DNA of 64,000 nucleotides from a virus (taxonomy: Duplodnaviria; Heunggongvirae; Uroviricota; Caudoviricetes), in the IMG/VR virus record IMGVR_UViG_3300028840_006985; one strand, 5' to 3'. Positions within the stretch are counted from its first letter, which is position 1; each line of letters opens with the position of its first letter. The notes below the pieces were generated by a model. That model was not told the DNA's origin. It made no database searches and worked only from the letters and a program-made list of their open reading frames with translations. This document shows, one piece after another, positions 1,252 to 64,000 of the stretch. A program made the position numbers and the translations under genes.

Positions 1252-2034
1252 ATGATAAAAGGATATAAGTTTTTCTTAAAGGATTATAAGTCAAAGTACG
1301 GCGATTTTCAGTTTAAGGTGGGAGAGAGATATAAGCATGATGGTTTAGTAATTTTATGTAATTCGGGCTTTCATTTTTCAAGAGATTTAGAAGATGCATT
1401 TCAATATTATAAAGAGGAGGCACATCATTGTTGCAAGGTAGAAGGGGGTGGAGAGATAGGAGAAGGTGATGACAAAGTTGTCTGTTCAGAGATACATATC
1501 AAAGAGGAATTAGACATTGCTGAAGTATTAAAAAAATTAAGTGAAGATAATGTTGAAGTATTAGAAAAATTAGGCGAAGACAATAGTTATAATATTAGAA
1601 GGACGATAGCAAGAAATCCTAATTGTCCGGTGGAAACATTAGAAAAATTAAGTGAAGATAATTATAGTGATGTCAGGTGGGGAGTAGCAAAGAACCCTAA
1701 TTGTCCAGTTAAAATATTAGACAAGTTATGCAAAGATAACAATTGGAATGTCAGGAGGATGGTAGCAGGAAATCCCAACTGTTCAACAGAGACTCTAGAA
1801 AAGTTGAGCAAGGATGGCAGTTGGAGTATTAGATGGGCAGTAGTAAACAATCCTAATTGTTTGATAGAGACATTGAAAGAATTAAGTAAAGATAATTATT
1901 GGAATGTCAGGGCGGCAGTAGCAGAAAGTCCCAACTGTCCAATAGAGATACTAAAAGAACTAAGTAAAGATGATGATTGGGAGGTTAGGGAGGCGGTAGC
2001 AAGCAATCCTAATTATGAAACAAAGAAATATTAA
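1252..2034 (+). CDS. LRV/HEAT-like repeat protein (about 23-aa repeats L..LS.D..W.VR..VA.NPNCP.E.L) with a conserved N-terminal domain; paralog of 15800..16459
   Basis: At least seven tandem repeats with the motif VRxxVAxNPNCPxExLxxLSxD. The N-terminal 85 aa (GYKF..DY.S.YG.FQFKVGERYKHDG...GFHFS...EAHHCCKV) is shared with ORF 15800. Confidence 0.7.
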   Translation: MIKGYKFFLKDYKSKYGDFQFKVGERYKHDGLVILCNSGFHFSRDLEDAFQYYKEEAHHCCKVEGGGEIGEGDDKVVCSEIHIKEELDIAEVLKKLSEDNVEVLEKLGEDNSYNIRRTIARNPNCPVETLEKLSEDNYSDVRWGVAKNPNCPVKILDKLCKDNNWNVRRMVAGNPNCSTETLEKLSKDGSWSIRWAVVNNPNCLIETLKELSKDNYWNVRAAVAESPNCPIEILKELSKDDDWEVREAVASNPNYETKKY

Positions 2035-6756: not shown

Positions 6757-7149
6757 ATGATCGGTTATGAGTATAATGTTATTGGTTGGTGTAAAAATAG
6801 AACGGTTTTAGGTTGTGAATGGCGTCTGATAGAATTGCTGTCAAAAATTTGTAATTCCATTGGCATGAGACAGTTATCAAGCGGTTCTGTTACGGTAGAA
6901 TGTGATTTGAATAAGCTAGATCGTGAACAATTTCAAGATGAAGGTGGTGTAACTGCTTATTTGATACTGAGTACGTCCCATATTGCAATACATGGTTGGC
7001 CGTATCGTGACATGAAGCGTGATGACGGGGGATATTTTTGGTTGAATGTATGTTCATGTCGATCATTTAACAACTCTGTTATAGATAGTACGTTAAAATC
7101 TGCATTAAATACAACTAATGTAGATACTCACATGTGGAGATATGGATAG
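6757..7149 (+). CDS. S-adenosylmethionine decarboxylase-like pyruvoyl-dependent enzyme (SpeH/AdoMetDC family)
   Basis: GGVTAYLILSTSHIAIHGWPYRD...FWLNVCSC matches the SpeH core [20 protein letters not shown]...IDLFTCG. Size about 130 aa, as for class 1b proenzymes. Confidence 0.55.
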   Translation: MIGYEYNVIGWCKNRTVLGCEWRLIELLSKICNSIGMRQLSSGSVTVECDLNKLDREQFQDEGGVTAYLILSTSHIAIHGWPYRDMKRDDGGYFWLNVCSCRSFNNSVIDSTLKSALNTTNVDTHMWRYG

Positions 7150-7187
7150 TTAAAATTTGCACTAAATACAATTAATGTAGATATTCC
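7081..7187. repeat. imperfect tandem duplication (about 50 bp x 2) spanning the stop codon of ORF 6757..7149
   Basis: gttaaaatctgcattaaatacaactaatgtagatact (7092-7138) and gttaaaatttgcactaaatacaattaatgtagatatt (7149-7186), each preceded by at(a/g)gatagt. Confidence 0.8.
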
Positions 7188-7236
7188 CTCCATTTTTAAT
7201 ACATCTTTAGATATTTAAAATTTTAATCAAATCAAT

Positions 7237-7265
7237 TTGACACATCTGTCAGATGTGTTACACTA
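7237..7265 (+). promoter_or_regulatory. sigma70-like promoter (TTGACA, -10 TACACT) with a 19-bp perfect palindrome ACACATCTGtCAGATGTGT between the elements
   Basis: TTGACA at 7237-7242. Palindrome 7240-7258. Lies upstream of the SNF2 gene. Same architecture as the promoters at 12758, 32463 and 52162. Confidence 0.55.
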
Positions 7266-7311
7266 ATATATAGATGATGATTTATTAACCCCTAACCAAG
7301 GAGAAGAAGAA

Positions 7312-9222
7312 GTGAAAGTTGTTTATGAGGATGGTAAATTTAAATGTTTCTCATCATATGATGAGAAACATTTACCTAAAAGTGCAGGGTGGTGGTGGGA
7401 CTCCGCCAACAAATATTGGTTTACTAAAGAAAAACATAAGGCACTTTTATTAAAGGATTATTTCACTCCATCAGCCTCGTCTGAGGCCAATCGCTGTTTT
7501 CAACCCCAACCTCAGTGCAATTCAATTGCATACAATGACAAAATACCATGTCCTGAGGGAATAAGATATTTTCCATTTCAGGAAGAGGGAATAAGATATT
7601 CCCTTTCTCGAGAGGGGACCCTTAACGCGTCAGAGATGGGGTGTGGCAAATCAATAATGGCATTAGGTCTTATTAATATTGATGAGACTCTTCGGAATAT
7701 ATTAATTATTTGTCCAGCGTCTTTGAAAATCAATTGGCAACGCGAATCTGAGAAATGGTTGGTTAGACCATTTGAGATTTATGTTATAAATAATAATAAA
7801 ATTTCTCCAAATGTAAATGCAAATTTGATTATTGTCAATTATGATCGCCTAAAAGGCGATATTCTTAAATATATTATGAAACGCAATTGGGATTTATTAA
7901 TTGTAGATGAAGCGCATGCCCTGAAAAACGGGGCGGCACAGAGAACAAAAAAAATTCTGGGAGTGCCGCCTACATGGCGTTATCATAATGGAAGCTGGAA
8001 ACAGATTAAACCACGAACCTTTGGTGTAATCGACCAATGTCGAAAAAAGGTGTTCTTAACTGGAACACCTGTTCTTAACCGACCCGTCGAACTATTTTCG
8101 CTTATCTCAGCCTTGGATTCGAAAAATTGGAGATCACGTTCAAAATTCGAAACAAGGTATTGCAATGCTCATATGGGAAAATGGGGGTGGGATAACAAGG
8201 GTGCTAGCAATATTGACGAGCTTAACTTCAAACTTAGATCGTCGATTATGTTTCGAAAAACAAAGGCGGAGGTTTTGCCTGATTTGCCTCCCAAAACCAG
8301 ACAAATTATAGTTCTGCCTGGTGACAGTAAGGTGAAATCATTGATTAAAGAAGAAAAAAAATTAAAGATCGATTTTTCGGATATCGAGGCGTTAACACCT
8401 GTGTCAACGGAGTTTCAACAGTTGTCAGAATTGCGTAAACGGTTAGCAATTGCGAAATTGCCTATGATAATCGAACATATAGAGAATATATTAGAAGGTA
8501 CTGAGAAGATTGTTATTTTTGCGCATCACCATGAGGTCATCGATGCGCTTCATGGCCATTTTCAGGCATCGGTAAAATTAGACGGTAGGAACAGTTTGGA
8601 GGCTAAGCAAAAAGCAATCGATGCATTTCAAGATGGTCAAGCTAGGATTTTTATTGGAAGCATCCAGGCCGCTGGTGTTGGAATTACACTTACCGCGGCA
8701 TCGCATGCGGTATTTGCAGAATCGGATTGGGTCCCGGCGAATTTGAGCCAAGCTGAAGATCGTCTGAATCGAATTGGTCAAAAAAATGCTGTTTTGATCC
8801 AACATTTAGTAGTGGATGGCACGTTGGATGCTAGAATGGTTCAGATAGTAGTGGAAAAACAAAAAATTATTGATGGTATTGTGAAACCAGTAGAGTTGAT
8901 CGAACCTAAGAAATCCGAACCACCAAAATCTAAACCATCAAAATCTAAACCTGGTAATGGTAAAAAAAATAATAACATTACTAACGAGCGCAGGGAGGCA
9001 CTTTGTTGTGCATTGATTAGTTTAGCTGGAAAATGTGACGGCGCTCGTCAGCAAGACGGGTGCGGGTTCAATAAGCTGGATACTAATTTTGGTACTAGTT
9101 TAGCAAAGCGGGGATCAGAACGTCCCCTGACTGACGAGGAGTTTTTAGCTGCGTTGAAAATGATTAAGAAGTACAAACGTCAGATTGAACCTAATTTGTT
9201 TGATTTGATTTATAAAAATTGA
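7312..9222 (+). CDS. SNF2-family DNA helicase / translocase
   Basis: GTG start with AAGGAG RBS. Motifs: GCGKSIMALGLI (motif I), LLIVDEAHALKN (DEAH box), FLTGTPVLNRPVELFSLISAL, and C-terminal helicase motifs QAEDRLNRIGQ. Confidence 0.85.
   Translation: MKVVYEDGKFKCFSSYDEKHLPKSAGWWWDSANKYWFTKEKHKALLLKDYFTPSASSEANRCFQPQPQCNSIAYNDKIPCPEGIRYFPFQEEGIRYSLSREGTLNASEMGCGKSIMALGLINIDETLRNILIICPASLKINWQRESEKWLVRPFEIYVINNNKISPNVNANLIIVNYDRLKGDILKYIMKRNWDLLIVDEAHALKNGAAQRTKKILGVPPTWRYHNGSWKQIKPRTFGVIDQCRKKVFLTGTPVLNRPVELFSLISALDSKNWRSRSKFETRYCNAHMGKWGWDNKGASNIDELNFKLRSSIMFRKTKAEVLPDLPPKTRQIIVLPGDSKVKSLIKEEKKLKIDFSDIEALTPVSTEFQQLSELRKRLAIAKLPMIIEHIENILEGTEKIVIFAHHHEVIDALHGHFQASVKLDGRNSLEAKQKAIDAFQDGQARIFIGSIQAAGVGITLTAASHAVFAESDWVPANLSQAEDRLNRIGQKNAVLIQHLVVDGTLDARMVQIVVEKQKIIDGIVKPVELIEPKKSEPPKSKPSKSKPGNGKKNNNITNERREALCCALISLAGKCDGARQQDGCGFNKLDTNFGTSLAKRGSERPLTDEEFLAALKMIKKYKRQIEPNLFDLIYKN
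7514..7530. promoter_or_regulatory. internal copy (16/17 match) of the AGTGCAATTCAATTGCA palindrome inside the SNF2 coding sequence
   Basis: agtgcaattcaattgca at 7514-7530, encoding ...QCNSIA... Matches the sites at 25274, 39194 and 40316. Confidence 0.5.
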
Positions 9223-9559: not shown

Positions 9560-10057
9560 ATGATGGTAGAAAAAAAATCTAAAAGGGCTCAAAAAGCTTA
9601 TTTAAAAAAATATTATCGTGAAAATAGGGAAAGATTAAAAGAATATTATCGATTAAAATATCATAACAATCCAGAATATAAGAGGAAGACGATTGAGAAT
9701 GACGCCAAGCGACGAAAAAGGCGTCAAGAAAAGGAGAGGAGGAGAAGAAAAAAAAGGGGTATTCCTTATTTGTATGGCACATTGCCGGTTATTATTAATG
9801 GAAAAAGGTATTATCCTATGAGATTTTTATCAAATTTTATTGGCAAGTCACGACACACGATTAGAATGTGGGAAAAAAGAGGAATAATACCGTGTTATTG
9901 GTTCAAGGGTCGTAGATTTTATACGTATTCTTTAATAAAGGCGATTAAATATGCTGTTGACAGTTTAGATGGTGAGCAACTTAGAGTAAAAAAGGAAAGA
10001 AAGTTTAAAAGCAAGCTGATAGCCTATTTATCCGTGGAGAAAAGAATTGATTTTTAA
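9560..10057 (+). CDS. basic DNA-binding protein with an excisionase/MerR-like HTH
   Basis: N-terminal Lys/Arg-rich region. YYPMRFLSNFIGKSRHTIRMWEKRGIIP...GRRFY resembles Xis/AlpA-type HTH_17. Confidence 0.45.
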   Translation: MMVEKKSKRAQKAYLKKYYRENRERLKEYYRLKYHNNPEYKRKTIENDAKRRKRRQEKERRRRKKRGIPYLYGTLPVIINGKRYYPMRFLSNFIGKSRHTIRMWEKRGIIPCYWFKGRRFYTYSLIKAIKYAVDSLDGEQLRVKKERKFKSKLIAYLSVEKRIDF

Positions 10058-10068
10058 GGAAATCATAT

Positions 10069-10572
10069 ATGGGGTGGTATATATTAAGAGTAATTTCAGG
10101 AAGAGAAAAAAGGGTTAAAAATTTTTTAAATAGGAGGAAAGATAAAAATGTCATTAAACAAATAATGATACCTTCTGAGCTGGTAGTTGATTTTACTAAA
10201 AAAGCAAAGAGTAAAAATCATAGTCATAATCTTTATCCTGGTTATGTCTTCGTTGAAATAGATTTGAATCAACAAGTTATTGAATTTATTAAAAAGACTC
10301 CTGGCGTATTGAATTTTTTAAAAGATTTAAATGGATATCCAAAAGAGATGTCATCAAAAGACATTAATCAAATATTAAATATAAAACCGTCCTTGAGAGA
10401 AAAGAAGTTTACTAAAGGCGATGTAATTACTATTAAAAAAGGTCCTTTTAATGGGTTTAATGGGATAATAGATGATGCTAATAATCCTAGAAAGGTCATC
10501 ATTTTAGTAATGGTGTTTGGGAGACAAACACCGGTGGAATTGGATATCAATTTTATTGAAGAGGTTAAATAA
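10069..10572 (+). CDS. nusG: NusG-like transcription elongation/antitermination factor (NGN plus KOW)
   Basis: WYILRVISGREKRV, PGYVFVEI, KOW FTKGDVITIKKGPFNGFNGII and VFGRQTPVELDINFIEEV closely parallel E. coli NusG (IFGRATPVELDFSQVEK). Confidence 0.85.
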   Translation: MGWYILRVISGREKRVKNFLNRRKDKNVIKQIMIPSELVVDFTKKAKSKNHSHNLYPGYVFVEIDLNQQVIEFIKKTPGVLNFLKDLNGYPKEMSSKDINQILNIKPSLREKKFTKGDVITIKKGPFNGFNGIIDDANNPRKVIILVMVFGRQTPVELDINFIEEVK

Positions 10573-12757: not shown

Positions 12758-12795
12758 TTGACTCTGTTTAAAATACATCTTATAGAGTAAGATGT
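12758..12795 (+). promoter_or_regulatory. sigma70-like promoter (TTGACT, 17-bp spacer, TATAGA) with a palindrome ACATCTTA-tagag-TAAGATGT
   Basis: TTGACT at 12758-12763. Inverted repeat at 12775-12795 overlaps the -10. Lies upstream of ORF 12829. Confidence 0.5.
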
Positions 12796-12828
12796 GATGT
12801 ATTTAACAAAAAAAAACGGAGCAAGAAA

Positions 12829-15562: not shown

Positions 15563-15806
15563 AACTACTGTTTTTGAATTACATATGGGTAGCAACAGTT
15601 TTAGTAAGGATGATATAGGAAAAACAGTTTGGCTTACTAGACCACAATGGTATGTAAGATTATTGGATCGAATAGGAAGAGGTTTTCCTTTTTTAGACAA
15701 CATATGTAGACGATTAATTGCAAGATTTTACGGATGTGGATATTTTAAAATTGTTGATGTTATTGATAATATGACATTAAAGATTGAACGAGAAAACAAA
15801 TGGTGA
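15555..15806 (+). CDS. hypothetical protein (start trimmed to the ATG at 15555, overlapping the previous stop)
   Basis: ORF 15423..15806 overlaps 15347..15562 out of frame. The in-frame ATG at 15555 (MNKTTVFEL...) gives a plausible gene. Confidence 0.4.
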   Translation: MNKTTVFELHMGSNSFSKDDIGKTVWLTRPQWYVRLLDRIGRGFPFLDNICRRLIARFYGCGYFKIVDVIDNMTLKIERENKW

Positions 15807-16459
15807 TAGAAGGATATAAGTTTTTGGGGAAAGACTATAGGTCAATGTACGGCAATTTTCAGTTTAAGGTAGGAGAACGGTACAAACATGATGGTCCAGT
15901 TAGATTATGTGAGTCAGGTTTTCATTTTTCTAAAAGACTAAGTGATGCGTTCAGTTATTATGGAAAGGAGGCACATCATTGTTGTAAGGTAAAAGGAAGT
16001 GGAAGGATGGAGGAAGGACAAGACAAGGTTGTTTGTTCAGGTATATATATTGAGAAAGAATTGAATTTTGTTGAGGTATTAGAGGAATTAAGTAAACATG
16101 ATAGCGTAAAAAAAGGAGTAGCGGAGAATCCCAATTGCCCGGCAGAAATATTAAAGAAGTTAAGTAAAGATGAAAATTTGAATGTTAAGATGTCAGTAAT
16201 ATGCAATCTTAGTTGTCCTATAGGGATATTGGAAAAATTAAGCAAAGACAAGCATTGGCATATTAGAACATTAGTGGCAGAACATCCCAGGTGTTCTATA
16301 AAAATTTTAGAAGAGTTAAGTGAAGATAAAGATTGGTATGTTAGATATGCGGTAGCAGGGCATCCTAGTTGTCCTGTGAAAGTGTCAGAAAAATTAAATA
16401 AAGATATAAATTCTAACATGTTAATAGCAGTGGAAGAGAGTAAATATGGAACTATCTGA
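15800..16459 (+). CDS. LRV/HEAT-like repeat protein, paralog of 1252..2034
   Basis: Shares the N-terminal domain (about 65% aa and about 80% nt identity over the first 250 nt) and the NPNCP/HPSCP repeat units. Confidence 0.7.
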   Translation: MVIEGYKFLGKDYRSMYGNFQFKVGERYKHDGPVRLCESGFHFSKRLSDAFSYYGKEAHHCCKVKGSGRMEEGQDKVVCSGIYIEKELNFVEVLEELSKHDSVKKGVAENPNCPAEILKKLSKDENLNVKMSVICNLSCPIGILEKLSKDKHWHIRTLVAEHPRCSIKILEELSEDKDWYVRYAVAGHPSCPVKVSEKLNKDINSNMLIAVEESKYGTI

Positions 16460-17300: not shown

Positions 17301-17838
17301 GATTATTGCTGGATTAGATTTGTCATTATCTAGAACGGGAATTGCGGTGCTTTTTCCGGGGTTTATGAGTAATGAAAACTTGATGGATGGGATTTGTTTT
17401 GAGCATATTGTGGTAGCTAAGTTGAAAAATAATGATATTCAGAGTAGGATTGAAAGAATAATTTATATTTCAGATGAAATTATTAAGATTTTAAATAGCT
17501 ATTGCGTTACACATGTTGCGGTTGAGAATTACGCATATGGTCGTGCTGGTTATGGGAGGGTTTTTGATTTGGCGGAATTAGGTGGACATGTAAAATGTGA
17601 GATATTTTCTAAAATGAATATTATCCCTGATATACTTCAGATTTCCACAATAAGGAAACATCTAATGGGCAGATGTAGACGAAATAATCCCAAAGGTCAG
17701 GTTTTAAGTTTTTTAAAAAGAGTAGGTATAGTTGTTAATAATAATGATGAAGCGGACGCTTTTGCAGTAGCATTAAAATTGTTTGATGATATTAATAATA
17801 ATAAAATGCCAAGTTTAAGTAAATATTGGCGAGGATGA
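17287..17838 (+). CDS. ruvC: RuvC-like Holliday junction resolvase
   Basis: IIAGLDLSLSRTGIAVL (RuvC motif GIDPGSRVTGYGV) and NDEADAFAVAL (DAADALAIA). Confidence 0.75.
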   Translation: MDDSKIIAGLDLSLSRTGIAVLFPGFMSNENLMDGICFEHIVVAKLKNNDIQSRIERIIYISDEIIKILNSYCVTHVAVENYAYGRAGYGRVFDLAELGGHVKCEIFSKMNIIPDILQISTIRKHLMGRCRRNNPKGQVLSFLKRVGIVVNNNDEADAFAVALKLFDDINNNKMPSLSKYWRG

Positions 17839-21433: not shown

Positions 21434-21538
21434 AGTGGTTGGTATGCTATATTAATATAATGTAAACGAGACGGGTGTTTTTCATAGTGTAAATATAATA
21501 TTTGAGTTGATTGACGAATTTGTAAACAGGTAGTTTCT

Positions 21539-21852: not shown

Positions 21853-22371
21853 ATGAGCTTACAAACGCGGATAATATATCCATTTGTAGAAACATGGCAA
21901 GATTATCCTGATTCGGTTAGTAATGCGGTATTGGTTTATTTTGTTGGCTGTGACAATTATTGTAAAGGTTGTCATAATCATCAATTAATTAATTATTATA
22001 ATAATGATGCCAGGTCTATTTTTCTTGGTAATTTTATTGAAGACTTAAACAATATGTGCACAAGGTGTAATACTGATAAAGTAGTTTTAAGTGGCGGGGA
22101 TCCGTTGTATTGTAAAAATGTGGAATTTGTTAAAAGTTTTTTAGTTCAGAACAATTTATCAGTTACTATTTACACTGGTTATGATTATAGTTATGTAAAA
22201 CGATGTGAAATATCTGGTTTTGATTTTATAAAAGTTGGAAAATTTATTCCAGAAGAAAGTCAACCTCCAGCCAAGAGTGACACATTTCTTAGATTAGCAT
22301 CAAAAAATCAAAAGATTTATAATAAAGACCTCATTGAAGTTACAGACGGCAATGGGGTCTTTTTCTTTTAG
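21853..22371 (+). CDS. nrdG: anaerobic ribonucleotide reductase activating protein (radical SAM)
   Basis: VYFVGCDNYCKGCHN matches the NrdG CxxxCxGCxN cluster (E. coli SGCVHECPGCYN). Size 172 aa. Sits immediately upstream of nrdD. Confidence 0.85.
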   Translation: MSLQTRIIYPFVETWQDYPDSVSNAVLVYFVGCDNYCKGCHNHQLINYYNNDARSIFLGNFIEDLNNMCTRCNTDKVVLSGGDPLYCKNVEFVKSFLVQNNLSVTIYTGYDYSYVKRCEISGFDFIKVGKFIPEESQPPAKSDTFLRLASKNQKIYNKDLIEVTDGNGVFFF

Positions 22372-22381
22372 GAGTCAACAT

Positions 22382-24811
22382 ATGAACACCTCTTCAACTC
22401 TGTCTGAATTTGTTTCTAATCCAACAACAACTAGAACAACTACAAATATTACAAATTCTTTAGTACAGTCTTTAACAAGAAAATACAAATTAGGATATGA
22501 TCTTTGGGATATAGTACAAAAAATAATGGCTATTCATGGGTTATCAAATGATAAGTTTGATTTTGTTGGTAATTTAAACAAGGTTTTGTGTAACAGATTA
22601 AATGATGTGAGCATTGATGACAATTCAAATAAGGTTGAAAAAACGTTTGAGGGATTAATACAGGAAGTTGTATGTCCTATTAAAAAATCAGTTGGTTATG
22701 ATTTTTTATATCAAACAATGCGAAAAATATATGGAAAGGAGGAAGCTAAAAGATTAAGCGGGGAGTTGTATGACTTTTCTTTATCATTAAATGATTCAAC
22801 TAAGATATTAATTCCTTACTGTTATTCTTTTAATGCATCTAATATTATATTAAATGGTAGAAAATTTGGTCAATTATATTCTAATCCACCTAAAAGGATC
22901 GAGTCGTATATAGCATGTTTAAATGAAACTATTCATCAAATGTCTCATCATGTCGCTGGAGCTTTAGCTGTTTCTACAATTTTTATAGATTTTTGTCATA
23001 TTTTATTAATAAAAGAAAAAATACCTTATTATGATATTATAAATAATATGGCGGTTCGTAAGAGAATAGAAAACGCCTTTCAAATGTTTGTACATTCGGT
23101 AAATCATTTATCTAGAAACAGCATTGAATCACCTTTTTCTAATATTTCAATCTTTGATAGACCCAAATTGAGAGCATTAATTGAGGGTATGAAATGGTAT
23201 TTTAATGATTTAAATACGAATAATGTGATTGAATATATTATAGCAATTCAAGATATATTTTTAGATTTTTTTGACAAAGGTGATCCATCTAAAAATGGAT
23301 TGCTTTATAGATTTCCTATTTGTACAGTCAATATTTCAAAGAAAAAAAAGGACAATGAATGGGTAGTCGAGGATGATAAGTTTCTTGAGTCAATAGTAAA
23401 AAGAGATATTTTTAGGTATAACATTTTTTCTAGTGAAGGAATAAAAATTGCTAGTTGTTGTTTTAGGGGAGATCAGCAAGTTGAAACAATGATTAATAGA
23501 GATGGAGTGATTTATGCAGATTTACCAACCTTTAAAGAGTTAATAGACGATATAGATGATTGTAACGATCGTAGAGTATATTATAATGGGTGGAAACATT
23601 TTGATAAGGTTAAAATAGGATATAATGATGATTGGATTGAGATTGTTTGTATGGATGGAAAAAAAATAACTTGTACTAAAGATCATTACTTTCCTTGTTT
23701 AAGTTATGAGGAAGGATTAATTAGATATTATGAATATAATAAAAGGGCAGAAGATTTAACAAGTAATGATTATTTAAAAACTTGTTGTAGTTTTATAAAA
23801 ATTAAAAAAGTTAATAAGGTTCAAAACAATGAAGGAGTTGCTTATTGTATTAATATTAGAAATGGTGAACCGTACTTTACATTGGCTAATGGAATTATAA
23901 CTCATAATTGTCGTCTTATTAACGACACAGAGATGTATGAACTAGGTGGGACAATTAATTCATTCGGTGGATCAGCAATATCAATGGGATCTCATCGTGT
24001 AGTTACAATAAATATTAATAGAATTGCTCTTGAGGCTAAAACTTTAGATGATTATTATGCGATTTTAAAGGAGAGAGTTAGAGATACGGCAAAAATTTTA
24101 AAAGCCCATAAAGAATTAATAAACATGACTACAAAGGAAGGCATTCAGATGTTTATTAAAATGGGTTGGATAGCGATGAGTAGGATGTTTTCAACGTTTG
24201 GAATATTGGGAATAGTTGAAGCAAAGGAAAATTTGGAAAAAAAATTTGGAAATAATGGTGATTATATTGAAGAAACTCTTAAATTAATGAATAAATTAGT
24301 TTTTGAATATTCAAAAAAATATGGTATATATGGCAATATTGAACAAATACCTGGCGAAAGTATGGCTGTTCGATTTGCTGAGGTAGATCGGTTATTATTT
24401 GGAGACGAAGCAATACCACAAAAAATATATTCAAATCAGTTTGTGCCTTTATGGGAAAATTCAACGATTTGGGAAAGGATGGCTGAAGATGGCAAATACA
24501 ATCAATTGATTACTGGGGGCGGAATTGTACATGTGCAGGTTGGAGAGAAAACAACCTCACAGCAGTCGAAAAAAATTATCAAATATGCTATTAAGGTAGG
24601 CAATGAGCATTTTGCTTTAAATGCGATCTATACGGAGTTTCAAGATGGTTCATTTATGCTTGGCAAGTATAAAATTAATCCTCAATCTGGCAGTCCTGCT
24701 AGGGAATATTATACAAGAGTTGTTGGTTTTTTTACTCCTGTTGGTAGTTGGAATAAGGTGAGACGAGAATGGGAGTTTCCACAACGAAAGTTCAACGGAG
24801 TAGACGTATGA
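22382..24811 (+). CDS. nrdD: anaerobic (class III) ribonucleoside-triphosphate reductase, intein-containing
   Basis: Start moved to the ATG at 22382, which follows AGGAG. A C-terminal glycyl-radical-like YYTRVVGFF motif. Adjacent to nrdG. No C-terminal Zn ribbon is seen. Confidence 0.7.
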   Translation: MNTSSTLSEFVSNPTTTRTTTNITNSLVQSLTRKYKLGYDLWDIVQKIMAIHGLSNDKFDFVGNLNKVLCNRLNDVSIDDNSNKVEKTFEGLIQEVVCPIKKSVGYDFLYQTMRKIYGKEEAKRLSGELYDFSLSLNDSTKILIPYCYSFNASNIILNGRKFGQLYSNPPKRIESYIACLNETIHQMSHHVAGALAVSTIFIDFCHILLIKEKIPYYDIINNMAVRKRIENAFQMFVHSVNHLSRNSIESPFSNISIFDRPKLRALIEGMKWYFNDLNTNNVIEYIIAIQDIFLDFFDKGDPSKNGLLYRFPICTVNISKKKKDNEWVVEDDKFLESIVKRDIFRYNIFSSEGIKIASCCFRGDQQVETMINRDGVIYADLPTFKELIDDIDDCNDRRVYYNGWKHFDKVKIGYNDDWIEIVCMDGKKITCTKDHYFPCLSYEEGLIRYYEYNKRAEDLTSNDYLKTCCSFIKIKKVNKVQNNEGVAYCINIRNGEPYFTLANGIITHNCRLINDTEMYELGGTINSFGGSAISMGSHRVVTININRIALEAKTLDDYYAILKERVRDTAKILKAHKELINMTTKEGIQMFIKMGWIAMSRMFSTFGILGIVEAKENLEKKFGNNGDYIEETLKLMNKLVFEYSKKYGIYGNIEQIPGESMAVRFAEVDRLLFGDEAIPQKIYSNQFVPLWENSTIWERMAEDGKYNQLITGGGIVHVQVGEKTTSQQSKKIIKYAIKVGNEHFALNAIYTEFQDGSFMLGKYKINPQSGSPAREYYTRVVGFFTPVGSWNKVRREWEFPQRKFNGVDV
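23459..23908 (+). mobile_element. mini-intein (150 aa, no homing-endonuclease domain) inserted in NrdD
   Basis: Begins CFRGDQQVETMI (block A, Cys1) and ends ...NGIITHN, followed by +1 Cys (CRLINDTEM). Extein junction reads IKIASC|CRLIND. Confidence 0.7.
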
Positions 24812-25080: not shown

Positions 25081-25274
25081 GAAAGAGGCCGAATAAAAAA
25101 ATATACAATCTTGGAATTACCTGGTGTTTAAAATGTGAAAAGATGACTAATGATAATATATGGAAAAAAATAAAAGAAGGAATTTTCGTTGGTCAGTGCA
25201 ATTGGTGCAAGACAAGAATGGTTGCCTATATGTATGAAAAAGGTAAAATTGTTGCTGACAAAATAAATGATTGA
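25077..25274 (+). CDS. small zinc-ribbon protein
   Basis: CLKCEKM...CNWCKTRM. Confidence 0.4.
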   Translation: MRKRPNKKIYNLGITWCLKCEKMTNDNIWKKIKEGIFVGQCNWCKTRMVAYMYEKGKIVADKIND

Positions 25275-25292
25275 GTGCAATTGAATTGCACT
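25274..25292. promoter_or_regulatory. palindrome AGTGCAATTGAATTGCACT immediately upstream of the RBS of ORF 25305
   Basis: Reverse-orientation copy (central G) of the motif at 39194 and 40316. Followed by AAGGAG and then ATG. Confidence 0.6.
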
Positions 25293-28419: not shown

Positions 28420-28542
28420 ACATATCTTTTAATACTTGTATTAAAAATTACATCAAATTAAGATAGAGTTAAAAAAATTGACTTATTAGACGTCAAATGG
28501 AATACTAAGATAATCATACCTCATATTAAAAAGGAATAAAAA

Positions 28543-30431: not shown

Positions 30432-31121
30432 ATGAGTAAAGAAATTTGGGTTAAATTAAGCGGCTATAAGTACGAATATGAAGTATCCAATTATGGTTAT
30501 GTTAAATATTTAAAAAAAGGTAATTATGTTTATTTAACCAGAAGAGGAGGACAAAAAAGGGTTTTCTATACTTTTGTTTTGCAAGATGGAAAAACAAAAA
30601 ATGTCTCAGTAGGCAAATTGATATTGACAACTTTTAAAGATCCAGGGTGTCAAGGATTACATGCTGCATATAAAGATGATGATTTTCGCAATTGTCATCT
30701 TGATAACTTATACTGGACGCTTCCATCTGGATTGACCGAACAAAATGTGGTTGATCTTAGAGAGGAGCAACGCAAGGGAGTGTCTTTAAAAGATTTATCA
30801 AAAAAATATGGTTTACATTTTCGTAGTATTAAAGACATAATTGACGGTCGCGTGTGGCCAACAGCGGGGAAGCATTTAAAAAAAGATAAGGAGGTTAAAG
30901 CTAAGCAAGAGGTTAAAGCTAAGCAAGAGGTTAAAGCTAAGCAAGAGGTTAAAGTTAAGCAAGTTAAGCAAAAAACTAACAAAGAATTAAAGAGGACAAA
31001 AAAGGAAATAAAAACTTTTTTAGTTTCTTCTGGTGAAAGAAGTCTTGTTATGGCAAGAATAGCCAAAGTTGAAGAGATGTGTGATGGTATTTTTCGTGAT
31101 GGAAATACTTATTTGTTTTAA
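30432..31121 (+). CDS. HNH homing endonuclease-like protein (NUMOD4 plus HNH_3) with a KAKQEV tandem repeat
   Basis: N-terminal WVKLSGYKYEYEVSNYGYVK (NUMOD4). NCHLDNLYW (HNH_3). An 18-nt repeat gaggttaaagctaagcaa x3 at about 30888-30960. Confidence 0.5.
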   Translation: MSKEIWVKLSGYKYEYEVSNYGYVKYLKKGNYVYLTRRGGQKRVFYTFVLQDGKTKNVSVGKLILTTFKDPGCQGLHAAYKDDDFRNCHLDNLYWTLPSGLTEQNVVDLREEQRKGVSLKDLSKKYGLHFRSIKDIIDGRVWPTAGKHLKKDKEVKAKQEVKAKQEVKAKQEVKVKQVKQKTNKELKRTKKEIKTFLVSSGERSLVMARIAKVEEMCDGIFRDGNTYLF

Positions 31122-32462: not shown

Positions 32463-32493
32463 TTGACTTATATCTGCAGATGTGCAATATTAA
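32463..32493 (+). promoter_or_regulatory. sigma70-like promoter (TTGACT ... TATTAA) with the palindrome ATCTGCAGAT between the elements
   Basis: TTGACT at 32463-32468. Palindrome 32472-32481. -10-like TATTAA at 32488-32493. RBS AAGGAG lies before ORF 32533. Confidence 0.5.
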
Positions 32494-33478: not shown

Positions 33479-34177
33479 ATGGTAGAATGGAAGCCGTTGC
33501 GGGGCTATGAGTTATATCTAATATCATCAAATGGGGATATTAAAGATTTAATGACTGATCGATATCTGGTTGCGAGTTATCAAGAAAGTGGTCCAAGTGT
33601 ATTGCTTTTTAGTGAGAATGGATATACTCGCTGTAAAGTAGCAGATTTGGTTTTAAAAACTTTTTTGCGTCTCCCCGAAAAAGATGAGATTCTCTTTTTT
33701 TTTGATGGTAATTGTAATAATGTAAATATTTCTAATCTTTCATGGAAAAAAAAGAAAGAGGAAGTTGTTAAAAAAAAGCAGCAAATTGCCGATGATTATG
33801 TCTGTGCAATCAAATGTTCATTTTATTCGGGGAGCCGAAAGATTTCGCAATTAGCAGATTGTTATGATTTGGAAATTGAAGACATAAAAGATATTTTATT
33901 TAATCCTTGTTGGAACTATATTGATATTCCTGGAACGAAGATAATCGATAATAATGGTAAAAAAATTCCAGATAGAAAATTGCCTGAATTGGCGGTCTTT
34001 CTTAGAAAATGTAATAAGTATTATAAAAAACGGAAAATAGACAAAGGAGATATTGAAGAGGGTAAAAACGAAGAAGAAGAATATGATGATTATGAAAAAG
34101 AACTCCCTGAAATGTCATTAAGAGAATTTAGGAACTTTATAAGAAATAAAAATGGAGATGATAATGAAAAAAAATGA
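33479..34177 (+). CDS. second NUMOD4/HNH-like homing-endonuclease-like protein
   Basis: WKPLRGYELYLISSNGDIKD (NUMOD4-like) and GNCNNVNISNLSW (HNH_3-like). Acidic C-terminus. Confidence 0.35.
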   Translation: MVEWKPLRGYELYLISSNGDIKDLMTDRYLVASYQESGPSVLLFSENGYTRCKVADLVLKTFLRLPEKDEILFFFDGNCNNVNISNLSWKKKKEEVVKKKQQIADDYVCAIKCSFYSGSRKISQLADCYDLEIEDIKDILFNPCWNYIDIPGTKIIDNNGKKIPDRKLPELAVFLRKCNKYYKKRKIDKGDIEEGKNEEEEYDDYEKELPEMSLREFRNFIRNKNGDDNEKK

Positions 34178-34679
34178 CAATTTTATGTTAAAGAAGCAAA
34201 TAATTAAATATTTAGAACAAAAGCAGACTGCCAGTATTCATGATATTGTGATTAATACAGGTCAAGTTATACATAACATAAGAAAAGTACTTGAAGAATT
34301 AATTTTTTTAGGTTTTTTAAGAAAGGATAATAAACAAACAGATGCTTATGATCTATGTTTAGGAAGAAACTATAAAAAGAATCAATCTTGTTATAGCTTA
34401 GTAAAATATCCTCAAAGTGATATTGATTTATTTCCAAAAAAGATAAAATACGTAGCCAGTAAAGTACAAGATCTTATCCAAGAACGCGGAGAAATGAGCA
34501 TACCTCAAATTTCTATTGAGTTGAAAATTTCTCAACATTATGCAGGTCAAGTTTTGAAGAAATTAGAACAAAAAGGAAAGCTTGTTAGAGTTGTTAAGCC
34601 ACAACGAACAGAAGAGGAGGTAAGAAGGAGGGTTAGAACAGTGGGAAGAAAAATGAGTTTTTTTTCCGTAAAGTGTTAA
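34152..34679 (+). CDS. putative DNA-binding protein with two winged-helix-like segments
   Basis: IIKYLEQKQTASIHDIV...LEELIFLGFLRK, and a second segment IPQISIELKISQHYAGQVLKKLEQKGKLVRV. Confidence 0.35.
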   Translation: MEMIMKKNDNFMLKKQIIKYLEQKQTASIHDIVINTGQVIHNIRKVLEELIFLGFLRKDNKQTDAYDLCLGRNYKKNQSCYSLVKYPQSDIDLFPKKIKYVASKVQDLIQERGEMSIPQISIELKISQHYAGQVLKKLEQKGKLVRVVKPQRTEEEVRRRVRTVGRKMSFFSVKC

Positions 34680-38052: not shown

Positions 38053-38201
38053 ATAACTTAACCGCACTACTTAAGCTTGCCTTGTTCAAAAAAACATTAT
38101 CATCTCTGAGATATATAAAATTTTTATAAAATTAATTTGACATATTTTAGAGATAGTAGTACTCTTTAGGTGAAGTTATTAAAAAAGGAAAGAAGGAAAA
38201 A

Positions 38202-38856: not shown

Positions 38857-39180
38857 ATGAAAAAAATAGAGTCTGGTGAAACATTTGTAACAATAGCAAT
38901 TATTATTGCAAGTATAATAATTGCTATTGTATTAACGTTTCAACATGTGATAGATTCACAAATAAATTTAGATATAGCATTTCAATCGGCTCATCAGTTT
39001 TCAAAGAAAATAGAGGATATTGCAGATATCAATTGTGTAGCGCAAGATAGCGATAGTGATGGCTATTGTTCATGTAGCCTTATTAAAAAAGATGGAAGTG
39101 TAATTTCTCTGGAATGTGGCTGTCGGCAAAAATTTTATGGTTGCAAACTGGCAACATTCAAGGTTGGGGAAATAGATTAG
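38857..39180 (+). CDS. membrane-anchored hypothetical protein
   Basis: N-terminal TM segment TFVTIAIIIASIIIAIVLTF. C-terminal Cys pairs. Confidence 0.5.
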   Translation: MKKIESGETFVTIAIIIASIIIAIVLTFQHVIDSQINLDIAFQSAHQFSKKIEDIADINCVAQDSDSDGYCSCSLIKKDGSVISLECGCRQKFYGCKLATFKVGEID

Positions 39181-39193
39181 GGAAGAAGTCGCC

Positions 39194-39212
39194 AGTGCAA
39201 TTCAATTGCACT
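39194..39212. promoter_or_regulatory. palindrome AGTGCAATTCAATTGCACT about 45 nt upstream of ORF 39258
   Basis: Perfect 8-bp arms around a central C. Identical to the copy at 40316. Confidence 0.6.
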
Positions 39213-40315: not shown

Positions 40316-40334
40316 AGTGCAATTCAATTGCACT
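40316..40334. promoter_or_regulatory. palindrome AGTGCAATTCAATTGCACT immediately upstream of the RBS of ORF 40359
   Basis: Followed by gacacAAGGAGG and the ATG at 40359. Confidence 0.6.
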
Positions 40335-42563: not shown

Positions 42564-42815
42564 GAGATGTGATGTTAGAAATTGTTAATCAAAAAGTATC
42601 AGAAACCTCGACAGAAATGAAAAAATGTTGTCAAAAAATGTTAAGGGAAGTGGACAAACTTGCTGCGTTGTTAAAAGATCAAATGATGGTGCTGGAACGT
42701 TAGCGTGGTGGGAATTTCTCAGGGACAGAATGGACAATATAAATAATTTATATGAAAATATAACGTTAGCTTTTGTTCAATTTTTAAAAGAAAAAAGAGA
42801 AAAGGAGAACAAAAA

Positions 42816-44266: not shown

Positions 44267-44364
44267 AAGAAAACCTAATCAAGAAAACCTAATCAAGAAA
44301 ACCTAATCAAGAAAACCTAATCAAGAAAACCTAATCAAGAAAACTTAATCAAGAAAACCTAATA
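44267..44364. repeat. 14-bp tandem repeat aagaaaacctaatc x7 (intergenic)
   Basis: Seven head-to-tail units with one variant (aagaaaacttaatc). Confidence 0.9.
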
Positions 44365-45430: not shown

Positions 45431-45677
45431 TGAATCAGCAATGTATAGTTGTTCTGAGGTTATAGTAGGATTTTTCGACGATTTTAATCTTGACAATGCT
45501 CAGAATGTATTAAAACAATTACCATATTTTGTAAAGATTTTAAACACATATGAACTTATTCTTGCGGTTCATGTAAAAGTTGTGGAAAATAGGGTAATAG
45601 ATTTTGCAGAGAATGCGAAAAAATTAAAATGCATAAAGTATGTAAATTTGAATTACTTTGTAAAACCTACTTTATAA
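45423..45677 (+). CDS. small hypothetical protein
   Basis: ORF track. Confidence 0.35.
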   Translation: MNNESAMYSCSEVIVGFFDDFNLDNAQNVLKQLPYFVKILNTYELILAVHVKVVENRVIDFAENAKKLKCIKYVNLNYFVKPTL

Positions 45678-45713
45678 AACCTACTTTATAAAACCTACTT
45701 TATAAAACCTACA
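45661..45713. repeat. 14-bp tandem repeat taaaacctacttta x about 3.8, sharing an AAAACCTA core with the 44267 repeat
   Basis: Spans the stop codon of ORF 45423..45677 and continues downstream. Confidence 0.85.
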
Positions 45714-47861: not shown

Positions 47862-48033
47862 AATGAGTCGTCTTTTTTTATTAGTTGCAATATTTGGAAT
47901 ATTTTGGTCTTTAGATTTTATTGATCAATCAGATTTTATTGATAGACAGTCAATATTGATAGAGGAATAAAATGAGTATAGCATTTACAATAGTGTTATT
48001 TTTTATGATTGGTATGGCGCTTCGATGTATGAT

Positions 48034-48194
48034 GGATTCTTAAAAAATGCTCCTGGACAAAATCTACCGTCCATGAGTTTTAAATTCCGAGCCTTCTAAA
48101 ATCCCGATCTAATAAAATCAAGCACTTACAAGAATGGGCTCTTAAAAAATGCTCCTGGACAAAATCTACCGTCCATGAGTTTTAAATTCCGAGC
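48034..48194. repeat. two about 59-bp near-identical direct repeats separated by a 43-bp spacer (intergenic)
   Basis: ...tcttaaaaaatgctcctggacaaaatctaccgtccatgagttttaaattccgagc at 48034-48092 and again at 48136-48194. Confidence 0.85.
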
Positions 48195-52161: not shown

Positions 52162-52192
52162 TTGACATTTTTTTTCTGTCATCATAAGATGA
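52162..52192 (+). promoter_or_regulatory. sigma70-like promoter (TTGACA, 17-bp spacer, TAAGAT) with the palindrome TCATCataaGATGA overlapping the -10
   Basis: TTGACA at 52162-52167. Palindrome at 52179-52192. Lies upstream of the terminase gene, in the divergent region shared with the minus-strand gene. Confidence 0.5.
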
Positions 52193-52311
52193 TTTATCAC
52201 AATACAATATTATTTATAATTGTCAAACAAAAAATAGAAGTACCAATGTTAATAATTATTGAATATTACAGGGTTAATCTTATACTAGATTAATAAAGAT
52301 AAGAGGATTAT

Positions 52312-61900: not shown

Positions 61901-61916
61901 CCCATAGCTTAAAGGT

Positions 61917-61947
61917 GGGGTTCGGCTCTGCCCGGACCTCATCTTTT
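61917..61947 (+). terminator. putative rho-independent terminator after the capsid gene
   Basis: GGTTCGG-ctctgc-CCGGACC hairpin followed by TCATCTTTT. Confidence 0.4.
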
Positions 61948-63373: not shown

Positions 63374-64000
63374 ATGAATCAAAAAATAAATAATCTTAAA
63401 AGAATTGCAAAGATAGTAGAGCATAAAACTCAAAAAAGAAGATTGCAAATTCTTTTTGATAGAATGATTAATTTTATAAAAAGTTCTGATTTTGTAGGAT
63501 TGCATTGTCAATCAAGACCTCGTAGTAGTCGTGGAAGAGAAGACACTATAGGATCTGGATCTTCTTATGCTCAAGGTGGAAAAAATTATGAGGATGTATT
63601 TCCATTTGTTCTTGACGGATTAACTTATAATTTAAGAGATAAAGCATCAGAGTTAGGCTTATTGGATATTCCCGACAAATATACTGACGAACATGATATT
63701 TGGTATGATAATGTTATAGATTTTTTAGATGAGTATAAAATTAGATGGATTTGGACAGATAGAAGAGAATTTTTAACTTCATATGGAGAATATTGTTATT
63801 TGGTACAAATTCCAGAAAAGGCAATTATTTATTATGACAATGATCCTAATATGGCAGGACCTGAGTCCGAGTTTTACGTATATGATTCTAACATTGCTGC
63901 ACCAAGGGTTTTTTTAGTTGAAGATTATTTTATAAATTATGTAGAAGAATATTTAAAAGGGCATAGAAAACCAGAATTAAAATTTAGTAGCGAAACTGGA
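63374..64000 (+). CDS. hypothetical protein, 3' partial (continues past the window end)
   Basis: ATG at 63374. The reading frame stays open for 627 nt to the window edge. Absent from the ORF track because no stop falls inside the window. Confidence 0.45.
   Translation, partial: MNQKINNLKRIAKIVEHKTQKRRLQILFDRMINFIKSSDFVGLHCQSRPRSSRGREDTIGSGSSYAQGGKNYEDVFPFVLDGLTYNLRDKASELGLLDIPDKYTDEHDIWYDNVIDFLDEYKIRWIWTDRREFLTSYGEYCYLVQIPEKAIIYYDNDPNMAGPESEFYVYDSNIAAPRVFLVEDYFINYVEEYLKGHRKPELKFSSETG

Follow-up and report, generated by a model that had tools for sequence, protein, structure and literature searches.

The region 7237-7265 of a 64,000-nucleotide stretch of the Caudoviricetes record IMGVR_UViG_3300028840_006985 (below, the window means this whole stretch) raises the question of whether a set of phage promoters is controlled by operators. 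Here a TTGACA hexamer is followed by an inverted repeat (dyad) built on CATCT and AGATG, in front of an SNF2 helicase gene. The initial annotation counted five such intergenic sites, at 7237, 12758, 32463, 52162 and 38102, and held a single regulator of phage or host origin to be probable for them. All five sequences are present at these positions, and all five sites lie in gaps upstream of plus-strand genes. The reading that we favour, tentatively and somewhat short of an even chance, is that the dyads are phage-specific operators set on the extended -10 element of the promoter and serving steric repression of three or four operons.

Promoters of the TTGACW class and their dyads

The -35 hexamer is TTGACA or TTGACT throughout. 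At 7237, 12758, 32463, 52162 and 38137 it is followed by spacers of 16, 17, 17, 17 and 17 nt, respectively, and by the -10 hexamers TACACT, TATAGA, AATATT, TAAGAT and TACTCT, two of which deviate at one key position. The start codons are 40-150 nt away. On the plus strand, nine of the 46 copies of TTGACW are situated in intergenic DNA, which makes up 5.7% of the window (enrichment P=0.001). Sequence, spacing and location mark the five sites as promoters of the predicted sigma-A/sigma-70 type. The class has about nine or ten members, at 7237, 12758, 28478, 32463, 38137, 46033, 51062 and 52162 and in front of the RNA-ligase gene, and several of them carry an A/T-rich UP-like tract (7215-7236, 38113-38136). 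This count includes a TTGACT promoter without a dyad (L006:813), which is met on a leftward walk along the source contig, ahead of minus-strand tail genes. In the contig L002, which encodes the nearest metagenomic relative of the SNF2 helicase (49% identical, syntenic), a promoter stands in the orthologous position after RecA, matching that at 12758.

The promoter P7237 (7237..7264, plus strand) consists of TTGACA (7237-7242), 16 nt and TACACT (7259-7264) in the gap 7150-7311, and precedes the SNF2 helicase / NusG-like / RecA operon. The perfect 19-bp palindrome ACACATCTGtCAGATGTGT (7240..7258) takes up the whole spacer and also includes the final 3 nt of the -35 hexamer.

P12758 (12758..12786, plus strand; TTGACT, 17 nt, TATAGA at 12781-12786) precedes the 12829 operon, which extends to SSB, a methyltransferase and the clamp. 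The arms of its inverted repeat ACATCTTAtagagTAAGATGT (12775..12795), ACATCTTA-tagag-TAAGATGT, flank the -10 hexamer; AGATGTG occurs here at 12790-12796.

P32463 (32463..32491, plus strand; TTGACT, 17 nt, AATATT at 32486-32491) lies ahead of the 32533 gene cluster. Its palindrome ATCTGCAGAT (32472-32481; 32472..32484 with GTG added) is in register with the 7237 spacer.

The promoter-like site P52162 (52162..52190, plus strand; TTGACA, 17 nt, TAAGAT at 52185-52190) is located between a minus-strand Bro-N-like gene and the terminase gene, in a gap that also carries a minus-strand TTGACA (52226). The dyad TCATCataaGATGA (52179..52192) covers its -10 hexamer. This is the weakest member of the family, with 5-bp arms and a different flank. 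It is nearly identical to the centre (7350-7365) of a perfect 34-bp palindrome (7341..7374), which lies within the SNF2 gene (codons 10-21) at a distance of 108 bp from the promoter dyad. In core and gap the centre of that palindrome, CATCATATGATG, agrees with the 52179 site; it is the only other place in about 84 kb of the genome where CATC-N4-5-GATG is found.

The fifth site differs. The sequence ATCTCtGAGAT (38102..38112) does lie ahead of a TTGACA, that of P38137 (38137-38165; TTGACA at 38137, 17 nt, TACTCT), as annotated, but 25 nt upstream of the -35 hexamer and about 65 nt upstream of the start, which is not an operator position. A similar sequence, ATCTttAGATAT (7203..7214, ATCTttAGAT), lies upstream of P7237. 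In P7237, P38137 and the L002 promoter alike, AGATAT begins 28 nt before the -35 hexamer and an A/T-rich UP-like tract follows. Given this shared position, the 38102 and 7203 sequences are assigned to a separate upstream element rather than to the spacer dyads.

The four remaining dyads all overlap the spacer or the -10 hexamer, as the initial annotation had it, where a protein, once bound, would keep RNA polymerase out. CATC and GATG are separated by 5 nt at 7237, 4 nt at 32463 (where the left arm is TATC), 4 nt at 52162 and 11 nt at 12758. The dyads are centred at about -22 at 7237 and 32463, and on the -10 hexamer at 12758 and 52162. For the three best sites (7237, 32463 and 12758) the centres of the half-sites are 10, 9 and 16 bp apart, respectively; the 9-10 bp of the first two correspond to one helical turn. 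Five of the six half-sites of these three contain (C)ACATCT, while 52162 and 38102 share only 4-5 nt.

Some promoters show a second kind of symmetry, in which an inverted copy of the -35 hexamer stands downstream of it: TGACA-catc-TGTCA (7237-7252), TTGAC-9-GTCAA (28478-28496) and TGACA-9-TGTCA (52162-52181). The same is seen in L002 (9942-9967, TTGACA-14-TGTCAA). Intergenic DNA contains three copies of TGAC..GTCA, with 0.18 expected.

The two dyad arms

The TRTGn "-16" motif is an established extended -10 element of Gram-positive promoters, according to the part of PMC2613000 that cites Voskuil & Chambliss 2002. At 7237 (TGTGt-TACACT) and 32463 (TGTGc-AATATT), a single base separates the end of the right dyad arm, AGATGTG, from the -10 hexamer. 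The RNA-ligase promoter, ACATGTGaTATTAA, contains ACATGTGa-TATTAA, so that TGTGn adjoins the -10 hexamer here as well. TRTG is located at 7254-7257 (TGTGt at 7254-7258) and 32481-32484, in the promoter at L006:813 and at L002:9960-9963, and is absent from this position at 12758 and 52162. The orthologous SNF2 promoter of L002 reads TTGACA-aaactggtg-AGATATGt-CAAAAT, with the register unchanged. By this comparison, AGAT(G/A)TG abutting the -10 hexamer is identified as a predicted part of the promoter itself in this lineage. The copy of AGATGTG at 42565 was rejected as a site, as it is a Shine-Dalgarno sequence plus start context (AGGAGatgtgATG).

If the right arm belongs to the promoter, the whole dyad might be intrinsic to it: AGA plus the TRTGn extended -10 would be read by the host sigma factor, and the CATC(T) partners would be due to chance or composition, with no dedicated regulator. 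The placement of TGTGn and the L002 promoter, which has the same register and no left arm, support this explanation. We nevertheless hold it to be rather unlikely, because of the statistics of the left arm and because the perfect 9-bp arms at 7237 reach well beyond TRTG.

The palindrome is enriched relative to coding DNA: CATC..GATG or ATCT..AGAT follows TTGACW at four of the nine intergenic copies and at none of the 37 coding copies, which served as natural controls (Fisher P=0.0008). For CATC-N0-12-GATG after the -35 hexamer, three of nine promoters were observed against 0.067 expected (familywise P about 0.0007). The maximum-count familywise test is dominated by words composed of A and T only, and the minimum-P test was used instead. 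The excess does not merely follow from the right arm. Out of seven GATG in the promoter windows, three have CATC 4-16 nt upstream, which is 20-40 times the expected frequency (P=4e-4 to 3e-3). The related pattern ATCT-N0-12-AGAT has seven copies in 3.65 kb of intergenic DNA against 1.9 expected, and its reverse orientation none against 1.8. The arm ACATCT is common to 7237 (at 7242) and 12758, a coincidence seen in 0.05% of shuffles. ACATCT-N0-14-AGATGT occurs three times in the window, with 0.07-0.08 expected; the third copy (17658..17676, gap 7) lies in a coding region with no TTGACW nearby. Finally, the spacers of 7237 and 32463 align in register as ATCTG[T]CAGATGTG, with a banded alignment score of 22 versus 12.5 +/- 2.0 for shuffled spacers (familywise P=0.0017), so that the left parts of the spacers, too, match. 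As the CATC excess persists when the seven GATG are taken as given, the left arm CATC(T) appears to be a phage-specific addition that turns the promoter element into a dyad.

The operator model and its alternatives

The model would be as follows. Three or four of the nine to ten promoters (7237, 32463 and 12758, more weakly 52162) would have gained a complementary CATC(T) a few bases upstream, so that the promoter's own AGAT(G/A)TG would supply one of the two arms of a dyad with its centre at -22 or on the -10 hexamer. A dimeric DNA-binding protein, probably encoded by the phage, would occupy the spacer or the -10 hexamer and sterically exclude RNA polymerase, thereby timing or shutting off the operons. 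The 34-bp palindrome, with its CATC-N4-GATG core, may serve the SNF2 promoter as an auxiliary site. The data show how the promoters are built, that the dyad is not random and that it overlaps the core promoter; we infer protein binding, repression by that binding and the identity of the protein.

The initial annotation named two helix-turn-helix (HTH) proteins as repressor candidates, and both genes are indeed in operons behind dyad promoters, which would allow autoregulation. The product of 9560..10057 (plus strand, P7237 operon) has a very basic N-terminal half and a HTH of the MerR or excisionase (Xis) type. Its match to Pfam MerR_1 (E=6e-4) is below the curated cut-off, it matches a PHROG 'transcriptional regulator' with E=1.6e-5, and no relative was found in PDB. 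The product of 34152..34679 (plus strand, P32463 operon) has a C-terminal winged helix (FeoC/MarR/DeoR-like), and its gene adjoins one resembling a NUMOD4 endonuclease.

A number of observations speak against an operator family, and in particular against one read by a single regulator. Two of its defining features are missing, constant spacing of the half-sites and conservation in relatives. With distances of 10, 9 and 16 bp, a rigid dimer could bind the first two sites alike and not the third, where the half-sites are about 1.5 helical turns apart, and only 4-6 bp are common to all sites. The orthologous promoters of L002 retain TTGACW and AGATATG and have no dyad or left arm, and the TRTGn element accounts for the right half, AGATGTG. 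For the candidate proteins, the HTH matches are all either sub-threshold or generic, and nothing ties these proteins to the motif. The control of the terminase operon from 52162, proposed in the initial annotation, is uncertain, since the genes form a late-type set and a late-like TATAAATAATATT is present on the minus strand of the same intergenic region.

The statistics have a reverse side as well, as the same data had been inspected before the motif was picked. Inverted repeats in general (arms of at least 5 bp, at most 34 nt after TTGACW) are not enriched, being found at 4 of 9 intergenic copies (44%) and 29 of 86 controls (34%). In an unbiased scan of the whole window for all 6-mer inverted repeats the motif ranks second, with a familywise P of only about 0.10-0.13, and an 8-nt word common to any two promoter segments, irrespective of position, is not unusual (P=0.83). 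These three results, together with the heterogeneous spacing, would also suit an element intrinsic to the promoter. Given the weak whole-window scan and the unremarkable shared word, the CATC(T)/(A)GATG signal is real but modest, and rests mainly on 7237, 12758 and 32463.

Searches elsewhere also count against the operator model. The exact 19-bp palindrome has seven matches in 185,579 bacterial genomes (596 Gb), in unrelated taxa and at the chance level. The pattern TTGAC-N-ATCTG-N-CAGATGTG occurs in 31 stretches of IMG/VR from about 12 unrelated lineages, which is close to chance; two of the 31 resemble real TRTGn promoters. Neither a host regulator nor a shared phage operator emerges from these pattern searches of bacterial genomes and IMG/VR. 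On balance, the good promoters, the position of the dyad, its non-random core and the HTH genes in two of the operons are retained from the single-regulator proposal, whereas one regulator for all five sites is unlikely, given gaps of 5, 4, 4 and 11 nt and centres at either -22 or -10.

A bolder version of the operator model can be formulated, which we regard as decidedly doubtful. A T4-like phage of an anaerobic host, probably of the Gram-positive type, would use its own operator-binding protein on a subset of promoters read by the host sigma factor, and variable spacing of the half-sites would be tolerated. With an upstream half-palindrome (at about -64) and the 34-bp palindrome (at about +86) on either side of the SNF2 promoter, binding there could be cooperative or involve looping, and the regulator would be a HTH protein from the controlled operons.

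The variable gap also suits hairpins, as the loop length varies while the complementarity is kept. The dyads could form hairpins in read-through mRNA, affecting its processing or stability, or in single-stranded DNA, so that complementarity rather than a protein-binding sequence would be selected. The arm extensions differ between sites (inner TTA/TAA at 12775, outer ACA/TGT at 7240), and those at 7238-7260 and 32469-32484 use G-U pairs of the sense strand. The 7237 dyad folds with -10.8 kcal/mol (z -2.6), no other local hairpin in this intergenic region scoring better than 7240-7258 (z -3.7), and the 12758 dyad has z -3.25. Read-through is plausible, since the genes are co-oriented with no terminator between them, and the genome holds another hairpin family with covarying flanks. 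However, the 32463, 52162 and 38102 sites fold no better than shuffles (z -0.28, -1.95 and +0.27), significant hairpins are present in only 4 of 25 intergenic regions, and the elements are situated in the non-transcribed spacers of their own promoters. Moreover, there is no U-tract and no match in Rfam. Hence hairpins seem an improbable explanation. A scan for tRNA was empty as well. Intrinsic terminators were rejected altogether: no dyad is followed by a T-run, and none appears in the list from the terminator scan.

A protein bound in the spacer might also activate. In phage lambda, the Q binding element (QBE) sits between the -35 and -10 hexamers of PR'. By analogy with it or with MerR, the dyads might be loading sites for an activator or antiterminator that modifies RNA polymerase, maybe together with the phage NusG paralog. 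Such a paralog (10069..10572) and the MerR-type HTH gene are both in the operon behind P7237, and the dyad promoters have weak -10 hexamers (TACACT, TATAGA, AATATT, TAAGAT). Specific nucleic-acid signals recruit NusG paralogs, and those such as LoaP require a leader RNA hairpin (PMC12691694); the known signals are in the transcribed leader, however, and not in the spacer. No Q-like protein was seen among the proteins scanned. The spacers have the optimal length of 16-17 nt, as opposed to 19-20 nt in MerR-type promoters, and the MerR-type promoter reading was rejected on this ground. A loading site is thus the least probable of these explanations, and a very improbable one.

Genomic context, other repeats and known systems

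The window has a GC content of 32% and nearly all genes on the plus strand. It encodes a set of replication proteins (DnaB, a DnaC-like protein, primase, SNF2 helicase, RecA, SSB and beta-clamp), the NusG paralog, an anaerobic NrdD and a T4-type structural module (large terminase, Portal_T4, Peptidase_S77, Gp23 and gp13); the sheath and gp19 genes are just outside it. The anaerobic NrdD and the low GC content suggest an anaerobic, low-GC host. The source is the 175.5-kb metagenomic contig k141_746074 of ENA ERZ27256783. Judging by its proteins, it is a deep-branching T4-like phage without close relatives, known only from metagenomes. Megablast against 50,697 phage records gave no DNA-level match to the window, the nearest phage isolates have 30-36% protein identity, and a scan of IMG/VR and JGI metagenomes yielded relatives of 23-47% identity only. 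The absence of close relatives limits comparative tests. Other contigs with proteins of the window are all 100% identical to the source and are therefore uninformative about conservation of the dyad. So are the relatives L051 (34% GC), L053 (50% GC) and L062, which have a different gene context and unrelated intergenic motifs. In L053, GTTGCACRCAAGATCAACTCCATCGTTTC precedes nearly every small gene (about 15 intergenic gaps), and in L051 (9501-13529) tRNA-like segments (GGTTCGATTCC) are found between small genes.

The NusG paralog (10069-10572) has a NusG NGN domain (E=7e-20) and a KOW domain. It adjoins the SNF2 helicase gene also in L002 and in the contig of P0010, a 54%-identical relative. 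NrdD (22334-24811) has a weak, sub-threshold intein-splicing match in the middle, and two genes resemble NUMOD4 homing endonucleases (30432-31121, 33479-34177). Left of the window (L017 versus L018), a second assembly, ENA ERZ27256798 (159.8 kb), shows no difference as far as a repeat-protein gene; past this gene, its sequence is that of the region right of the window (window 63911-64000) in reverse complement. This implies either an inversion of about 70 kb between inverted paralogous genes, or a mis-join at the repeat. The paralogous genes belong to the family of 1252..2034 and 15800..16459.

A second promoter class has no -35 hexamer and consists of TATAATAT; it precedes structural and other genes. 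Five of its ten copies are intergenic (P=1e-4), and the plus-strand ones are at 21494, 25609, 40303, 57101 and 62570. Minus-strand copies of TATAAATAATATT are located at 52207-52219 and in L018 (8613-8665). Both TATAATAT and TATAAATAATATT are found in front of structural genes, and both are similar to TATAAATA, the late promoter of T4. A Sigma70_r2-like gene is placed, from L017, on the minus strand about 70-71 kb from the window start. One clear intrinsic terminator (61912-61947; a G+C-rich 14-bp stem, then TCTTTT; -20.5 kcal/mol, z -4.1) follows the major capsid gene.

A cleaner palindrome family than that of the promoter dyads is formed by AGTGCAATTNAATTGCACT, a 19-bp sequence with three copies (25274-25292, 39194-39212, 40316-40334), the consensus AGTGCAATT[C/G]AATTGCACT and a partial copy at 7515-7530. 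It tops the unbiased inverted-repeat scan (p=4.6e-7, familywise about 0.03). Downstream of each copy, at a distance of 12-45 nt, come a ribosome-binding site and a start codon. One copy starts 6 nt after a TATAATAT -10 hexamer, and hence would form the 5' end of the transcript. The stem continues into the flanks with bases that vary between copies (TT/AA, CC/GG, T/A), which suggests a selected hairpin. The family was not found in IMG/VR.

Two perfect inverted repeats with 17-nt arms lie in coding DNA, namely the 34-bp palindrome described above (7341-7374) and 38890-38930. The distance from the start codon is 29 nt in the SNF2 gene and 33 nt in gene 38857..39180, and the RNA folds have z of -9.0 and -5.8, respectively. 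In the SNF2 gene, the residues specified by the right arm, YDEKHL, are conserved, and those specified by the left arm are not; this palindrome and the NusG paralog are in the same operon. The L002 SNF2 gene has a different, 8-bp hairpin at a similar place.

Direct repeats are present as well. Just upstream of the promoter at 7237, a 38-nt repeat (7092-7129 and 7149-7186; 89% identical, 57-nt period), with a third, partial copy (7210-7232), spans the end of an AdoMet-decarboxylase-like gene and the gap. Its 21-nt core has two copies against 0.03 expected; the repeat might bind a regulator or act as an origin-like element. Between 44.2 and 46.3 kb, in the window's longest non-coding stretch, there are 14-nt tandem arrays of AAGAAAACCTAATC (6.9 copies, 44267-44363) and TACTTTATAAAACC (4.2 copies, 45654-45712), both with AAAACCTA. 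These iteron-like arrays might mark a replication origin or a regulator array. The 367-nt gap that precedes gene 48229 (S-AdoMet lyase-like) holds a 61-nt repeat (48032-48092 and 48134-48194; 97% identical, 102-nt period) with a GGAC..GTCC hairpin in each copy.

If the operators are real, the small regulon would comprise the helicase/NusG/RecA operon, the replication-accessory operon, the membrane and nucleotide-metabolism cluster and perhaps the packaging genes. This would be a timing switch in a lineage with no cultured member and no studied transcription programme, and a case of a T4-like phage employing operator-type repression, beyond modification of RNA polymerase alone. If the dyads are merely intrinsic to the promoter, the finding is ordinary. 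The promoter map, with TTGACW-17-TAnnnT with or without TRTGn and the -35-less TATAATAT class, is a first sketch of the early/late programme.

Among known systems, the closest to the right arm is the TRTGn element, with one base between TGTG and the -10 hexamer in three promoters (7237, 32463 and RNA-ligase) and TATG in its place in L002. It covers four of the seven bases of AGATGTG; the AGA before it is not part of the known motif, in which a complementary upstream CATCT does not figure either. MerR regulation is similar in the location of the dyad between the -35 and -10 hexamers and in the MerR-type HTH protein encoded nearby, and differs in that the regulator untwists a spacer of 19-20 bp, against 16-17 bp here.

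The TTGACW class is comparable with T4-type early promoters in its consensus -35 hexamer, the A/T-rich UP-like tract and the location before early and replication operons, and the separate -35-less TATAATAT class before structural genes is again as in T4. The early -35 hexamer of T4 is of the GTTTAC type, versus TTGACA here. A MotA box and homologues of AsiA or MotA were not seen, though no search was aimed at them. T4 shuts off its early promoters by modification of RNA polymerase and not by operators.

From the classical operators the dyads differ in the inconstant spacing of the half-sites, the short common sequence (about 4-6 bp), a cognate protein that is only a candidate, the absence of the dyad in the nearest relative and the apparently lytic, T4-like nature of the phage. 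At the same time, a dyad of 10-19 bp across the spacer or the -10 hexamer is what is seen in the OR and OL of lambda CI/Cro, the LexA boxes, the operators of P22 Arc/Mnt and the tetO of TetR. As in these systems, a half-site is common to several promoters, candidate regulator genes are in the controlled operons, and steric exclusion of RNA polymerase would be expected.

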